Assembly (NCBI GenBank): GCA_965213685.1
Contig: CBDBZY010000012.1
Coordinates: 32,001 to 96,000, forward strand
DNA from: a bacterium
Lineage (GTDB): Bacteria > UBA8248
Reading direction: 5' to 3'
DNA: 64,000 bases
The position numbers were made by a program, and so were the translations under genes. How positions within the stretch are numbered: position 1 is the stretch's first letter; every line of letters begins with the position of its first letter. Below the pieces are notes generated by a model. The model saw only the letters and a list, made by a program, of their open reading frames with translations, was not told the DNA's origin and made no database searches. Below, piece after piece: positions 30,143 through 38,830 of this stretch.

Positions 30143-32230
30143 CGCGCAAGGCCTCGCGGATTCGATTGGGAATCGACATCGGGGGCACGTTCACCGACCT
30201 CGTGCTCATGGATGAAGCCAGGGGTGCGGTCCACATCGCCAAGGTCCTGACCACGCCCGACGATCCCGCTGCGGGCGCGCTTTCGGGTTTTGGCCGCATA
30301 CTGGAGTCTGCCGGCCTGACCGCCCCGGACGTCGCGAGCGTCGTTCACGCCACCACCCTCATCACCAACGCCCTGATCGAGAGGAAGGGCGCTCGCACGG
30401 GCCTCATCACGACGCAGGGGTTTTCCGACGTCATCGAGATCGCCCGCGAGAAACGCTTTGATCTGTATGATCTGCACCAGGAGACGCCCGCGCCGCTGGT
30501 TTCCCCGGAATTGCGGGCGGAGGTTCCCGAGCGCGTGCATGTGGATGGCGAGATCGCGGTGCCCGTCGACCTCGAGGCGGTGAAAAGAGAGGCGCGAAAA
30601 CTCGTGGAACGGGGGGCGGAATCCATCGCCGTCTCCTTTCTCCACGCACCCGTGAATCCGAAGAATGAGGAGGCGGCCCGGGCCGCCCTCCTGGAAGCCG
30701 TCCCCGGGGTGCCCGTTTCGATTTCCTCCGCCGTGGCGCCGGAAACGGGAGAGTATGAGCGCGCGTCCACCACGGCGGCGAACGCTTATGCGCGGCCCAT
30801 CGCCGACGCCTATCTGACGCGCTTGCTGGAGAGCTTGGGGGATTCGGGATTCGGGGGGGATCTTTTCATCATGCTCTCGAACGCGGGCTTCGCGGGGATC
30901 GACAGCGTGCGGGAGCACCCGGTGAGAATCATCGAATCAGGGCCGGCGGGCGGTGCGCTCGCGGCCGCGCAAATCGCCAAATCCCGGAAGGAGGCCCACG
31001 CCTTGGGATTTGACATGGGCGGCACCACGGCCAAGATATGCCTGATCGAAAACGGAGAGCCCGCCACGGAGAACCGCTTCGAGGTGGCGCGGACGTCGAG
31101 ATTTCAAAAAGGAAGCGGCTTGCCCATCCTCTCGCCCACCGTGGATTTGGTCGAAATCGGAGCGGGCGGCGGTAGCATCGCGCAGATGAGCGCGCTGGGG
31201 CTGCTCCAGGTCGGCCCCCCAAAGCGCGGGGGCGGCCCCGGGGCCCGTTTGCTATGGCCGGGGAGGGGAGCGCCCCACCGTCACCGACGCGAATCTGGTT
31301 TTGGGCTACCTGAACCCCGATTTTTTCCTGGGCGGTGCCATGCGCCTCGACCCGGAAAAAGCGCGGGAGGCGGTTGCCTCCCTGGGGCGGAAGCTCGATA
31401 TGCGCGTGGAGGATGCGGCGTGGGGGGTGTATGAGATCATCACCGAGCAGATGGCGAGTGCGGCGCGCGTGCACATCGCCGAGAAAGGGGGCGACCCGAG
31501 AAATTACGTCCTGATCGCCACGGGGGGCGCCGCTCCCCTGCACGCCTGCCATATGGCGAAGAAGCTCTACATTCGCCGCATCGTTTGTCCGCCGGACGTG
31601 GGCGTGGCCTCGGCCGCCGGCCTCCTGGCGGCGCGGCCGAGGGCCGACGCCGTTCGTGCCCTGGTGTCCGACGTCGACGCGGTCGACTGGGCGCGCGTCG
31701 CCGAATTGTACGGGGAGATGGCCGCCCAGGTGAGAGATTCCCTGGGAGATGCGCTCCACGGGAGCGAGGAGCGGGAGATGCCATGCGCGGCCGATATGCG
31801 CTACCGGGGGCAGACGGATACGGTGAGCGTCCCCCTCCCCGGAGAAGGGGGCGTGCCGGTTCCGGACGCCGCAGCCGTGAAGGAATTGTTCGAGCGGGCG
31901 TACGCGAGGCGGTATCTGAGAAAAATCGAGAACGTGGCGGCGGAGGTGGCTGCCTGGCGGTTGGCGATGCTGGGGCCCCGCCCGGGCGCCGTGCGCGTCC
32001 CGCCGATCGCAGATCGGGGGGATTTCGAGAAAGGGAGAAGAAAAATATACGCGGGCCCCGGAGGCGGATTCGTGGACGCGCTCGTCTACCACCGCTATTC
32101 CCTGCCCCCCGCGCGGGAATTCCCGGGCCCCGCCATCATCGAGGAGCGCGAATCCACTATCGTGATACCCGGGGACGCCCGCTTCGAGAAAGACGAGGCG
32201 GGCCACATCGTCATCCAGGTGAATCATTGA
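30139..32230 (+). CDS. Hydantoinase/oxoprolinase subunit A, frameshifted near 31215-31260
   Basis: GIDIGGTFTD, HATTLITNALIE, ESGPAGG, FDMGGTTAK, IGAGGGSIA, DMRYRGQ. Confidence 0.9.
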
Positions 32231-33787
32231 GCCCGGCGTCGTTCGACCCCATCACGCTGGAAGTGCTTTGGCGAAGGCTCATCGGCGTAGTGGATGAGGC
32301 GGCGGCCTCTCTGGTGCGCACCTCCTTCTCCACGCTGGTGCGCGAATCGAACGATTTTTCCTGCGTGCTCACCGATGATCAGGGCCACTCCCTCGTGCAG
32401 TCCTCCGCCAGCATCGCCTCGTTCATCGGCACCCTGCCGATAACGGTTCGCCATTTTCTCCGGGCGTTTCCGCCCGAGACGCTCGCACCCGGCGACATCC
32501 TGGTGACCAACGACATCTGGTACGGAACGGGTCACCTTCCCGATGTGAACATCGTCCAGCCGGTGTTTTACCGGGGGAAATGCGTCGGGTTTTCCGCCAG
32601 CACGGCCCACCTGCCGGACATCGGCGGAAAAATTCGCTCCCCGGACCCCAGGGAAGTGTATGAAGAGGGGCTCCAGATTCCCATGATGAAGATGTACAGG
32701 CGGGGCGAGCCCGACCGGACGCTCATCGATCTCATACGCTATAACGTGCGCGTGCCGCATCTGGTAATGGGCGACATCAACGCCCCAGATCACGGCGAAT
32801 CGTCTGGCGGAAAAGCGCTTGACCGCTCTGCTGGAGGAATACGGCCTGGCGGATTTGCGCGCGCTGACAAGAGAGATTCAGGGCCGATCCGAAAAAGCGA
32901 TGCGAGACGCCCTGCGTCGTCTGCCGGACGGGGAGTTCCGCTCCGAAGTCGAAACGGACGGCCTAGCGGCGCCCATTCGGGTGAAAGCGAGAATAGAGAA
33001 AACCGGGGATTCCCTGGTGATCGACTACGCCGGCTCATCGCCGCAAGTCGACCGCGCCGTGAACGTGGCCTACAACTACACGTATGCGTATTCGGTATAT
33101 CCCATCAAATGCGTCCTCTGCCCGGAGGTTCCCAACAATGAGGGGGTGCTTCCGGCCCGTTGAAGTGCGGACGGAGGAGGGGAGCATTCTGGATCCGCTT
33201 CGTCCCGCCGCGGGAGGGGGGCGGATGCTGGTGGGCCACTATCTGCCCGCGGCCGTTTTCGAGGCCCTCGCTCCCGTCATCCCGGAGCGGGTGCCCGCGG
33301 CGAGCGGCTCTCCGCTGTGGTGCGTGAACTACACGGGGCTGGACAAGCGGGGCGTCAGAACGGCGGGGCTCTTCTTTCAGAACGGGGGCACGGGCGCTAC
33401 CGCGCGCGGAGACGGCCGCGCCTGCCTGAGCTATCCCAGCAACGTCTCCCATACGCCGATCGAGGTGATCGAGCGCATCTCCCCGTTCACCCTGCTGGAG
33501 AAGACGATACTCCGGGATTCGGGCGGGGGCCGGCAAGTTTCGGGGCGGTTGCGGGCAGAGGATCGTCCTGCGGAACGATTCGCCGGCCCGCATCACGGTT
33601 TCGTTTATGGCCGAGCGCACGAAGTCGCCCGCACCGGGTCTGTTTGGCGGCGCTCCGGGTGCGCGGGGGCAGGTGCGCATCAACGACGCCGAGATCGACC
33701 CCCAAGGTCACCACCGAGATGGCACCGGGCGACCTCCTCACGCTCATCACGCCGGGCGGCGGAGGATACGGCGAGGCGGGGCGGTGA
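32227..33787 (+). CDS. Hydantoinase/oxoprolinase subunit B, several frameshifts
   Basis: DPITLEV, RTSFS, GHLPD, HLPDIGG, EEGLQIP, TPIEVIE, TPGGGGYG. Confidence 0.88.
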
Positions 33788-34236
33788 TGTCTTCGCTTGC
33801 CGAGGGGGAATGGCGCTTCATCCGGAATGCGCGCGTGGCGCGGCTGGCGACGGCCGACGGGAGGGGCGCGCCCCATCTCGTGCCCGTGGTGTTCGCCGTG
33901 GTGGACGGGAGAATATACGTTCCGGTGGACGGCAAGCCGAAGAGGAGGGTCGCGCGCCTGAAACGTCTCGAAAACATCCGGGAGAATGAAAATGTCTCGT
34001 TTCTGGTGGATCGCTATGCGGAGGATTGGGCGAACCTCGGGTTCGTGATGCTCTCGGGAAGCGCGGCTGTCATCCATGCCGAAACCGGGGACGCCTACGA
34101 AAGGGCGGCGGAGGCCCTGCGGGAGAAATACCCGCAATACCAGGGCGTCGCGCTCCATGAATGGATGATAGAAATCCGGCCGCTTCGCGCCGCCTCCTGG
34201 GGTGCGGTGCAGGCGGGGGAGCCTTCATCCACATGA
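33787..34236 (+). CDS. PPOX-class (split beta-barrel) putative F420-dependent oxidoreductase, Rv0121-like
   Basis: RVARLAT, PHLVPVVFA, VDGKPK, LKRLENI, DRYAEDW, KYPQY; ATG overlaps the upstream stop. Confidence 0.8.
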   Translation: MSSLAEGEWRFIRNARVARLATADGRGAPHLVPVVFAVVDGRIYVPVDGKPKRRVARLKRLENIRENENVSFLVDRYAEDWANLGFVMLSGSAAVIHAETGDAYERAAEALREKYPQYQGVALHEWMIEIRPLRAASWGAVQAGEPSST

Positions 34237-35501: not shown

Positions 35502-35804
35502 GGGGTCCTCTTCGCCTCATGGAAGGGCTGCCGCGCCGCCGGTTTCCCCCCTGCGCGGCGTTCCTCTCGCGTGAATGGGGCCATTTCACCCCATCGACGC
35601 GCAAATATCAACGGCGGATTGGCGCGCGGCCGGGCTTTGGAGCGGCCCGGGGAGAGGGGATCGGACGGGTCGCCCCCGGGGAGCCTTGCGGAGAAGTCCC
35701 GCCCCCCCGGGCGCTCGAGGCCGCGCCCTCGCCGTGGTAGGGTGGCGTTTCGGGAACCCGCTGGAGGCGAGAAATGACATGGACACGATGGAATGGAGGC
35801 GAAC

Positions 35805-37229
35805 ATGGGCGTTGATGAATTGAATTTTCTCTCGCTGCATCATCTCTCCCGCCTCCTGCGGGAGCGGAAAATCTCGCCCCTGGAGGTGGTGGACGCGCAC
35901 CTGCGGCAGATCGAGGCGCTCAACCCCCGGATCAACGCCTTCATCACCGTGTGCGCGGAGAGGGCGCGGGAAGACGCAGGAAGGGCGGAGGATGAAATTC
36001 AGGGCGGAAACTACCGGGGGCCGCTGCACGGCATACCCGTAGGGGTCAAGGATATCGTCGATACCGCCGGCGTCCTGACGACGCAGGGTTCGCGTTTTTT
36101 CTCGGAAAACGTTCCGGACGAGGACGCGGAGTGCGTGCGGAGGCTCAGGGAGGCGGGCGCCGTCATCATCGGCAAGTGCAACACCCACGAGTTCGCGGCC
36201 GGCTCCACCACCGTGAACCCCCATTACGGCCCATGCCGCAACCCCTGGGACACCGACAGGGTGTCGGGCGGCTCGAGCGGCGGCTCGGGGGCCGCCGTCG
36301 CCGCGTTCATGTGCCCCGCCGCCGTGGGAACCGACACGGGCGGCTCCATCCGGGGGCCGGCGGGAGCCTGTGGCGTGGCGGGACTGAAGCCCACCTACGG
36401 GCGGGTGAGCCTTCGCGGCGTGTTCCCGAACGCTCCCGGCCTCGACCATGCCGGCCCGATCGCCAGAACGGCGCGCGATTGCGGTCTCGCCCTCCAGGGC
36501 ATGGCGGGTCATGACCCGGCGGACGGGGGCTCGGCGGATCGGGAGGTGCCGGATTTCTGCGCCGCGATAGGCGAGGGCGTCGAAGGGATGCGCTTCGGGA
36601 TTTGTCGGGATTTGCACCTCTGCGAGAATGACGAATCGGTTCAAAACGGCTTCGAATATGTGCTCGAAACCATGGAGCGTCTGGGCGGGGTCGTCGTGGA
36701 GGTGCGCTATCCGCTGGCCGGCAGAATGCTCGAGGTTCGCAACGTCATCGCCGATATGGAGCTGGCGATGGTCCACCGCGAGCGCCTCGCCCTGCATCCG
36801 GAGAAGTTTGGAGCGGACGTGCGGAGCCGCATCGAGCGGGCGAGCCGCACGACGCAGGAGGATTACGAGCGTGCCTGTGCGGAGCGTCTGCCGCTCACCC
36901 GGGCGATGGAGGAGGCGTTTGATGAGGCCGACATCCTCCTCGCCCCGGGCTACCCTTGCCCCGCCGCGCCGATTGCGACGACGATGGGGCGCGTGAATGG
37001 CAAGGAACGCCCGTTTTCCGGTCTCGGCAGACCCCAGACCGGCCCGTACAATCTGTTTGGCTTCCCCGCCCTCTCCGCGCCGTCGGGCTTCAGCGCCGAG
37101 GGCCTGCCGGTGTCAGTCCAGTTCGTGGGGCCGCCCTGGGAGGAGGCGCGCGTGCTGCGGGCGGCCCATGCGTTCGAGGAGGCCGCGCCGGACATCCGGC
37201 GAAAAAAGCCGCCGATGTTCTCCGGCTGA
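35805..37229 (+). CDS. Amidase signature family protein (GatA-like)
   Basis: GPLHGIPVGVKD, GGSSGGSG, GTDTGGSIR. Confidence 0.92.
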   Translation: MGVDELNFLSLHHLSRLLRERKISPLEVVDAHLRQIEALNPRINAFITVCAERAREDAGRAEDEIQGGNYRGPLHGIPVGVKDIVDTAGVLTTQGSRFFSENVPDEDAECVRRLREAGAVIIGKCNTHEFAAGSTTVNPHYGPCRNPWDTDRVSGGSSGGSGAAVAAFMCPAAVGTDTGGSIRGPAGACGVAGLKPTYGRVSLRGVFPNAPGLDHAGPIARTARDCGLALQGMAGHDPADGGSADREVPDFCAAIGEGVEGMRFGICRDLHLCENDESVQNGFEYVLETMERLGGVVVEVRYPLAGRMLEVRNVIADMELAMVHRERLALHPEKFGADVRSRIERASRTTQEDYERACAERLPLTRAMEEAFDEADILLAPGYPCPAAPIATTMGRVNGKERPFSGLGRPQTGPYNLFGFPALSAPSGFSAEGLPVSVQFVGPPWEEARVLRAAHAFEEAAPDIRRKKPPMFSG

Positions 37230-37359
37230 CGCCGGGCTTTGGGGATCGGAGGAGGCTCCGGGAAATCGTCTAACGAAAACAGGAGGTGCGGGATGGAGAC
37301 GCGGTCGATATAATGAGAGCACGCCCGCGGTTTTCTTGCCTGCTGGAGGGGACGGGAAT

Positions 37360-38205
37360 ATGACGAGAGACGACGGCTCCCCGCTTGTTTCGGCCGCGTG
37401 GCTTTTGGAGCGTCTGCAGGAGCCTGGCTTGCGGGTCATCGAGGTTTCCTCATCGAGCGATGACGCCTCCTACCGCGAGGGGCATGTTCCGGGAGCGCAC
37501 CGGTGGTTCTGGAAGGACGCCCTCTGGCACGAGACGGACCGCGCGTTCGCCGCGCCCGGGGAGATGGCGAAGCGGCTGGGGCGCGTCGGCGTCGGCCCGG
37601 ATGCGACCGTCGTCCTGTATGGCGACCCCGTGCAGTTCGGCACCTATGCGTTCTGGGCGCTCAGGATGGCGGGGTTCCGGAATTTGCGGCTCCTCGATGG
37701 CGCGAAAAAAAAGTGGATGGCCGACGGGATGCCCATCTCGCGGGAGACGCCGGAGCCCCGGGCGGTTCCCCACGCCGCTGCGGGCGCGGGGGAGACCCTG
37801 AGCGTGGGCAGGGATGAGGTGCGCGCGAAGCTGGGCCAGCCGGGCCGGGTACTGCTCGACGTGCGCTCGCCGGAGGAATTCCGGGGGGAGCGGGTGATGC
37901 CCCCTCCGGGTTTCGACCACGGCGCGGAGCGGGCGGGGCGCATACCGGGGGCGGTTCATCTGTTTTTCCGCGAGCTGCTGCATGCGGACGACACCTACAG
38001 ACGCCCTGAGGAGCTTCGGAGCATTCTGCGCGGAGCGGGAGCCCTTCCCGATGAAATCGAACTCGTCCTCTACTGACGCCTGAGCCACCGGGCCAGTCTG
38101 GTCTGGTTCGCCATGAAGTATTTGCTGGGCTACGAAAACGTGAAAATTTATGACGGCTCATGGACGGAGTGGGGGAGCATCGTCGGTTTTCCGATTGAAA
38201 GGTGA
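37360..38205 (+). CDS. Two-domain rhodanese/sulfurtransferase (SseA/CysA-like) with in-frame TGA (38074-38076), probable selenocysteine
   Basis: GHVPGA, LLDG, DVRSPEEF, then LY-TGA-RLSHRA and the in-frame rhodanese C-terminal signature YDGSWTEW; stop at 38203-38205. Confidence 0.82.
38082..38109 (+). promoter_or_regulatory. Putative SECIS hairpin of the sulfurtransferase gene
   Basis: GAGCCA-ccg-GGCCA-GTC-TGGTC-TGGTTC stem-loop with a G-starting loop 19 nt after the TGA; folded by eye. Confidence 0.55.
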
Positions 38206-38258
38206 TGCGCGCCGCCGCGCGGGACGAATGCGGAAGCGCCTCACGGCGGAGAGTAAGA

Positions 38259-38291
38259 AAAACACCGCGGCCACGGGGGCCGCGGTGTTTT
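38259..38291. terminator. Bidirectional intrinsic terminator
   Basis: AAAACACCGCGGCC-ACGGG-GGCCGCGGTGTTTT perfect inverted repeat between convergent genes. Confidence 0.85.
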
Positions 38292-38309
38292 CGGGTTCAG
38301 AAAACGGCG

Positions 38310-38621
38310 CTAGCGCAGCACGTTGCCGGGTTTTCTCGGCGGGTCGTTCGCCGGGCGCGGCTCCACCGGCTCGTTGTTCTTGAAGTCCGGTGCGAGCTCC
38401 TCGTTGATGGCCGCCCATACGGGATCGTCATCTTCGCTTTCCAGGATGGCGTCAATCGGGCACTCCGGCTGGCAAACGCCACAGTCGATGCACTCCTCGG
38501 GATCGATGATGAGAAAGGGCTCCCCCTTGTAATCGCCCGGGTGCATACAATCCACGGGACAGACGCTCACGCACGTCGCATAGCGCTCGCCCAAGCATTT
38601 CTCCCCGATGACAAATGTCAT
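38310..38621 (-). CDS. 7Fe-type (3Fe-4S/4Fe-4S) ferredoxin, FdxA-like
   Basis: MTFVI..C...CVSVCPVDC and IDPEECIDCGVCQPECP. Confidence 0.9.
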   Translation of the reverse strand: MTFVIGEKCLGERYATCVSVCPVDCMHPGDYKGEPFLIIDPEECIDCGVCQPECPIDAILESEDDDPVWAAINEELAPDFKNNEPVEPRPANDPPRKPGNVLR

Positions 38622-38830
38622 GGATGATTCCCTCCTTCTGAAAATGAAGATTGTCGCCATTTGAATGCGCGAGAGGGCGGCCCCTGGCGATTCACGAATA
38701 TCCGACGCCGCGCCGGCTTCACCCGACGGTTGCAAACTCCACCCATGCTATCAGCTGGCGTTGAGGGAAAGCAAGCATTCCGGCGCGTAAATTTCAGATT
38801 CTCCGGATGCGCGGCGGAGGCCTGTGCGGG

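Follow-up and report, generated by a model that had tools for sequence, protein, structure and literature searches.

Does a TGA codon that falls in the middle of a rhodanese gene end the protein, mark a defective sequence or encode selenocysteine (Sec)? The gene in question lies in a 64,000-nt stretch of DNA from a bacterium of the UBA8248 lineage (the whole stretch is called the window below), and its TGA stands where the catalytic cysteine of the enzyme would be expected. The original prediction, made from the sequence, took the gene to code for a Sec-dependent sulfur/selenium transferase that gene callers would truncate. The Sec machinery of the genome, the pairing of TGA with Cys codons among relatives and independent contigs all support this reading, and the comparative evidence leaves us highly confident that the locus is a genuine selenoprotein gene.

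Gene structure and the position of the TGA codon

Re-reading of the sequence gave the same coordinates for the gene and its TGA as the original prediction (Table 1). The frame opens with ATG at 37360, passes through the in-frame TGA at 38074-38076 (codon 239) and ends with another TGA at 38203-38205, while the table 11 ORF list closes it at 38076. With the internal TGA translated as U, the product has 281 residues and reads ...LVLY-U-RLSHRASLVW...YDGSWTEWG.... The start is kept as M-T in 20/20 orthologues, and the GGAGG in front of it presumably works as a ribosome-binding signal. Window positions equal positions on contig C12 of the organism's own assembly (labelled G000) minus 32000.

Table 1. 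Features of the rhodanese locus (window positions)
Feature	Position	Strand	Basis
Amidase gene, 130-nt gap upstream of the rhodanese gene	35793..37229	+	PF01425, 391.5 bits
Shine-Dalgarno-like GGAGG	37345..37349	+	sequence reading; 10 nt before ATG
Predicted complete selenoprotein CDS, 281 residues plus stop, through TGA codon 239	37360..38205	+	translation
N-terminal rhodanese domain	37390..37722	+	PF00581 at C12:69390-69722; no Cys at loop position
C-terminal, putatively catalytic rhodanese domain with one TGA inside	37813..38175	+	PF00581 at C12:69813-70175
UGA, predicted to be read as selenocysteine U239, at the catalytic Cys position	38074..38076	+	homologue and structure-sequence alignment
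Active-site loop codons R-L-S-H-R-A directly after the predicted Sec	38077..38094	+	translation, alignments
30-nt block, invariant including synonymous sites	38086..38115	+	20-orthologue alignment
SECIS-type hairpin, 9-bp stem and GUC loop	38087..38107	+	RNA fold; identical in 22/22 Sec forms
True stop codon TGA	38203..38205	+	20/20 orthologues end there
Strong, terminator-like GC hairpin and following U tract, separating the two convergent genes (rhodanese, ferredoxin)	38263..38291	.	fold
Convergent 4Fe-4S ferredoxin-like gene, downstream	38310..38735	-	annotation of window

PF00581 matches the product with 107 bits (cut-off 22.2) in two stretches of a single chain of about 280 residues, the arrangement of a tandem rhodanese. 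Lacking a Cys at the loop position, the N-terminal domain is probably non-catalytic. The C-terminal domain has its nucleophile at the start of the loop, with the predicted Sec in place of Cys. The best solved relative is 1uar_A ('Rhodanese', E 1.2e-63, residues 8-280), whose loop Cys (...YCRIAERS...) is aligned to U239, as is the loop Cys of 8k55_A. The Cys of YCRLSHR falls into the U239 column in 9/9 full-length homologues of 60-67% identity as well, so that the TGA does occupy the active site, as had been claimed. Alignment with 1uar_A, 8k55_A, 3aax_A and 3hwi_A is full-length (residues 8-280, E 1.2e-63 to 5.6e-54). In these solved rhodaneses, as here, the loop has an R at its sixth position and is followed by YDGSWTEWG; it starts with Y-C-R in them, the Cys being replaced by UGA in our gene, and their loop residues I-A/G-E differ from the L-S-H found here.

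No NCBIfam model reaches its cut-off with this protein. Three assignments were considered and rejected on their scores: 3-mercaptopyruvate sulfurtransferase (NF008557, 88.3 bits against an equivalog cut-off of 250), the ExtH rhodanese of a selenite/tellurite reduction operon (NF040901, 54.7 bits against 200, the match covering just residues 211-276 against a 430-position profile) and the rhodanese_LYCAU (seleno)protein (NF041203, 39.8 bits against 115).

Reliability of the TGA codon

Contigs of runs X1 and X3 match positions 37300-38300 with zero differences; both runs belong to one study, which is possibly the source of the assembly itself. Positions 37891-38089, including the TGA, are also covered with zero differences by a 199-nt contig from a separate study (run X5), which provides independent support for 38074-38076. 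An assembly error at the TGA is excluded: the X5 contig agrees with the assembly, and the same codon is found in 21/21 sequences from the genus (see below), in line with the initial view that the TGA is unlikely to be an error.

Other genes of the assembly look damaged. The hydantoinase B gene is split over two overlapping frames (window positions 31585-33138 and 33084-33986, + strand), and selD lies in three frame-shifted pieces (G000:C31:101342-102000). Both breaks look like assembly indel errors, which is how such defects had been described at the outset.

Distribution of TGA and Cys forms

Twenty of the 22 same-genus genomes hold a full-length match (73-80% identity) with exactly one TGA. 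In one more genome (G003) the gene is split across two contigs, with the TGA on the second piece, and a genome of 79% completeness (G017) holds only a 36-residue end fragment; the TGA is thus present in 21/22 genomes of the genus. LY-TGA-RLSHR is found at the same codon in 21/21 sequences read (the gene itself and 20 relatives). In a phylum sample of 51 genomes TGA forms are confined to this genus (g1), and the full-length matches outside it are free of stops. One of these assemblies has, at a contig edge, an incomplete second copy of the Cys-form gene with an internal TAG (G044:C363:3-767).

Eighty loci from other species include 15 with TGA (all 74-84% identical and belonging to the genus) and 39 with Cys, the remaining 26 being so distant or truncated that the motif search could not place them; these 80 loci alone sample the spread outside the phylum, so rarer TGA forms elsewhere may be missed. 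Altogether an in-frame UGA stands against Cys at the same column in 22 TGA forms and 45 Cys forms, and the homologues show TGA or Cys at exactly that column, the very pairing that had been proposed as a check.

In a quick maximum-likelihood tree of 60 rows (seven truncated rows, L093, L107, L111, L116, L117, L119 and L125, were omitted) the 21 Sec forms make one clade with SH-aLRT 100, nested among Cys forms. The Cys forms around this clade come from MAGs labelled Nitrospinota and Chloroflexota. Judging by the alignment and the tree, Cys is the ancestral residue at site 239. Since the Sec forms are a single clade nested among Cys forms, the tree points to one change from Cys to Sec, roughly when the genus arose. 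The restriction of such a switch to one genus appears to be new.

Translation beyond the TGA codon

A codon alignment of 20 orthologues gives dN/dS of 0.18 upstream of the TGA and of 0.056 (pS 0.46) in the 29 codons beyond the frozen block around the hairpin (see below). Variable sites downstream of the TGA fall 29, 9 and 5 times on codon positions 3, 1 and 2, respectively, and the ORF list offers no start codon for a separate ORF there. The gene thus shows what a selenoprotein gene should, a UGA kept from species to species and a frame that stays under purifying selection beyond it. As far as substitution patterns can tell, a pseudogene and a real stop are ruled out, because dN/dS of the tail is low and its substitutions are mainly at third positions.

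A hairpin after the UGA

Bacterial SECIS elements (E. coli fdhF, bSECISearch) are hairpins located in the coding sequence just after the UGA, with the upper stem about 10-11 nt on and a small apical loop that opens with G. Compared with this general description, the hairpin that follows codon 239 is similar in place, spacing and the loop-start G (here G-U), but it has no bulged U and its stem is made of active-site-loop codons. The 5' arm (38087-38095) and the 3' arm (38099-38107) enclose the loop GUC (38096-38098); the stem starts 10 nt and the loop 19 nt after the UGA. The original prediction had a two-tier hairpin with a G-starting loop 19 nt downstream, of which the upper 9-bp stem and the loop position hold, whereas the lower tier is not conserved: its first position, 38082, is C in 8/20 orthologues and A in one more.

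Folding energy was dropped as evidence, as it does not separate the region from dinucleotide shuffles at 66 nt (z +0.37) or 40 nt (z -0.65; at 27 nt z is -2.24). The hairpin is significant because it is conserved, not because of its energy. No invariant run in the codon alignment of 846 nt is longer than the 30-nt block that contains it (the runner-up has 14 nt), and the third positions of this block are variable in 0/10 cases against 202/239 upstream. The chance of all eight degenerate third positions being fixed would be about 0.15^8 = 3e-7, a figure that assumes independent sites, which related sequences do not have. Being invariant, the hairpin offers no covariation. The G and U of the loop come from an AGU Ser codon, which is AGT in 22/22 Sec forms and accounts for only 3.4% of Ser codons in the long ORFs of the organism. 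Geometry, frozen synonymous sites, the rare AGT and likeness to the hairpins of 17 other genes (described below) together suit a SECIS element. Rfam gave no SECIS-type match for the locus, only weak chance matches on the terminator-like hairpin further downstream.

At the loop codon the 45 Cys forms have ACN or TCN, with one AGC, and G-U at loop positions 1-2 occurs in 0/45 of them. In the same register they encode 3-9 of the nine stem pairs. All nine pairs are present, with unchanged spacing from the Cys codon, in the Cys form of a Dehalococcoidia MAG (L117), and three more Cys forms (L096, L099, L100) resemble it in already encoding 8-9 of the nine. On this comparison it is mostly the conserved peptide H-R-A-S/T-L-V/A-W that dictates the stem. 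As the stem pre-exists in Cys forms, the stem alone is no proof of a SECIS element; taken as a sign of Sec, as it had been, the hairpin retains its value through conservation at the nucleotide level but is not diagnostic alone.

Sec machinery and the mixed assembly

All four components of the Sec machinery that had been listed for checking (selA, selB, selD and tRNA-Sec) were found in the genome. selA (501.6 bits) and selB, recognised through its winged-helix domain (77.6 bits), are about 2.7 kb apart on contig C5, and tRNA-Sec is on C44 (78.6 bits, cut-off 47). The fragmented selD on C31 is probably broken by assembly indels. The contigs of all four have about 65% GC, as does the contig of the window. 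selA and tRNA-Sec are also present in 5/5 closed genomes of the genus.

The assembly combines two classes of contigs. The 49 high-GC contigs (about 61-69% GC, 3.07 Mb) have 99% of their length in stop-free stretches of 150 or more codons, and the 22 low-GC contigs (33-54% GC, 4.90 Mb) have 26-56%, both shares being taken from sampled contigs. The low-GC contigs look non-bacterial and are possibly host DNA; no rhodanese-domain (PF00581) matches were found on them. Both the contig of the window and every contig with Sec machinery fall into the high-GC class.

Further candidate selenoprotein genes

The high-GC contigs were scanned for in-frame TGA codons that are flanked on either side by coding signal and have a hairpin nearby. 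The scan produced 26 candidates (e.g., C5:79288-79929, C13:34317-34856 and C3:339900-341549), 20 of which were run against NCBIfam (loci L156-L175); the strict composition filter of the same scan missed the rhodanese gene itself. Seventeen of the 20 match (seleno)protein families, six of them above the curated cut-off. They include six UGSC proteins (five above cut-off), five AhpD/YciW-related and two deiodinase-family proteins, and one each of OsmC-related, peroxiredoxin/SelL-related, PrdB/selenoprotein-B-like and CUAEP-tail radical SAM proteins, the last with 652.6 bits and above cut-off. The other three candidates are two adjacent gene pairs and one without a match. Formate dehydrogenase (PF00384) matches in the genome have no internal stop. 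Judged by these family matches, the organism is rich in selenoproteins, with at least 17 further candidate genes.

In the hairpins of the candidates, a stem of 6-10 bp begins 9-15 nt past the UGA, and the loop, 3-5 nt long, in most cases opens with G-U or G-G-U (GUG, GUA, GUC, GGUC and GGC are among the loops). The hairpin of the rhodanese gene fits this set, although the common geometry is partly built in, as the scan accepted only hairpins whose loop has G within its first two positions.

The genome holds a second two-domain rhodanese gene (C36:122116-122898, L031), whose product is 33% identical to the first and which also has a TGA at the catalytic position (Y-U-QTGYR). This TGA is kept in 21/21 sequences read, including one from a sister genus, and is followed after 11 nt by a 6-bp stem with a GGC loop.

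Genomic neighbourhood

The amidase gene is found upstream in 18/19 loci of the genus and is missing from the flanks of all Cys-form loci examined. The ferredoxin-like neighbour is also kept beside Cys forms in other genera (L091, L104, L106 and L118 by tblastn). Neither of the two points to a specific sulfur or selenium pathway, and a functional link to the amidase was rejected as unsupported beyond genus-level synteny. The GC hairpin that separates the convergent genes (-27.8 kcal/mol and z -5.5 when 38250-38300 is folded) presumably terminates transcription; a scan for consensus promoters and terminators did not call it and found no promoter. None of the RNA runs is listed as containing this stretch.

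Proposed function and alternative readings

Taken together, alignments and genome content make it very probable that the gene codes for a cytoplasmic two-domain rhodanese of the thiosulfate-sulfurtransferase type, in which the catalytic Cys has been replaced by Sec. We propose that SelB carrying Sec-tRNA(Sec) would bind the 9-bp GUC-loop hairpin 10 nt after the UGA, that Sec would be put in at codon 239 and that the ribosome would then finish the last 42 residues, which comprise the rest of the active-site loop and YDGSWTEWG. Binding by SelB is proposed because the geometry of the hairpin is common to the other selenoprotein genes of the genome. In the finished enzyme, the selenolate nucleophile would sit in a loop rich in Arg and His and carry sulfane sulfur or selenium as an Se-S or Se-Se intermediate from an anionic donor to an acceptor. 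This chemistry is suggested because it is the chemistry of the family.

If the TGA were a real stop, the gene would yield just 238 residues, lacking the active-site loop, and something else, for example a small ORF or an RNA element, would have to account for the conservation downstream. Exactly such products are given by gene callers (entries of 215-239 residues ending in LVLY). We nevertheless hold this to be very unlikely, as the frame is kept over the 42 codons that follow the TGA, with dN/dS of 0.056 over 29 of them and third-position substitutions dominating; they encode the rest of the catalytic domain, which can be aligned residue by residue to solved enzymes, no start codon is available for a separate ORF, and a rhodanese cut before its catalytic loop would probably be inactive. 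A pseudogene or an assembly error, a thought invited by the frameshifted look of hydantoinase B (two frames) and selD (three pieces), is barely conceivable given the TGA in 21/21 sequences, the agreement of the second-study contig and purifying selection on both sides of the TGA; besides, there is no frameshift, only a substitution, and it affects precisely the codon at which Cys is switched to Sec.

It is also unlikely that recoding of UGA 239 yields something other than Sec, or Sec in part only, i.e., that near-cognate Cys or Trp is inserted there, or that Cys is inserted via the Sec machinery when selenium is scarce, leading to a mixed product. The UGA is followed by C, which is a weak termination context, and the ancestral residue at site 239 is Cys, both of which would suit such recoding. 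Against it stand the frozen G-U-loop hairpin, spaced as in 17 other family-supported selenoprotein genes, the complete Sec machinery of the genome and the retention of TGA in 21/21 sequences, even though TGC is just one mutation away. Insertion of Sec at codon 239 thus remains our preferred reading.

Relation to known Sec rhodaneses and significance

Rhodanese sulfurtransferases with Sec have appeared in catalogues since the mid-2000s, so the kind is already known, as the original prediction rightly stated. Excerpts of the Sargasso Sea study give three rhodanese-related sulfurtransferase selenoproteins of COG2897 (PMC1088965), and those of the GOS study have a COG2897 row and a cd01449 row, the latter with, as we read it, 8 Sec sequences and 3,367 Cys homologues (PMC2398784). 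An excerpt of a 2026 review distinguishes five Sec-containing rhodanese-like forms with the motifs UxxS, UxxG, CxU, UxxG and UxxxxU (PMC13188914). In the excerpts of these three papers no biochemistry is reported for any Sec rhodanese.

As in the Sec rhodaneses listed in these excerpts, which include the two-domain COG2897/cd01449 type, the Sec of our gene would lie in the catalytic rhodanese loop. Its U-x-x-S is the motif of form 1 in the excerpted review, and the U-x-x-G of the paralogue on C36 is the motif of forms 2 and 4 (PMC13188914). The model NF041203, 'rhodanese-related (seleno)protein' (form 3), matches weakly over residues 226-280; it is a 126-position single-domain profile, with the motif CxU in the excerpted review, whereas the Sec predicted here replaces the Cys itself. 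The switch described here differs in being limited to one genus, with the nearest relatives all having Cys.

In the excerpted description of BSepDB, three UBA8248 MAGs are among the ten bacteria richest in selenoproteins, with 48-54 genes each, and are labelled Nitrospinota, Nitrospinaceae or Nitrospinae (PMC13326102). Relatives of our gene bear the same NCBI labels as these MAGs, and the gene itself may already be catalogued in that database.

Truncation by gene callers, which had been anticipated, is a fact in the public record. The entry for the gene has 215 residues, those from the same genus have 237-239, three of them end at ...LVLY, and every public entry seen for the gene and its orthologues stops before the catalytic loop. 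With the entries truncated and no NCBIfam cut-off reached, the gene is mis-annotated genus-wide as a short or inactive rhodanese. As an observation, the truncation of the public entries appears to be new.

A proto-SECIS encoded by an active-site peptide also appears to be new. We tentatively speculate that the peptide H-R-A-S/T-L-V/A-W alone encodes most of a SECIS element at the right distance, so that TGC to TGA together with a change of the Thr/Ser codon from ACN/UCN to AGU, by which the loop gains G-U, might suffice for a selenoprotein. This could possibly explain the repeated origin of Sec in rhodaneses. Where an organism makes dozens of selenoproteins, the Sec enzyme might be a carrier of selenium (perselenide) and not just of sulfur.

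The locus is a clean and recent case, with Sec in one genus (21/21 sequences read) against Cys in all sister genera and in 45 homologues that are more distant. It offers naturally paired Sec and Cys enzymes in which the advantage of selenium to a sulfurtransferase could be studied, and the Cys forms that encode most of the hairpin give a testable model of the birth of a SECIS element inside a coding sequence.
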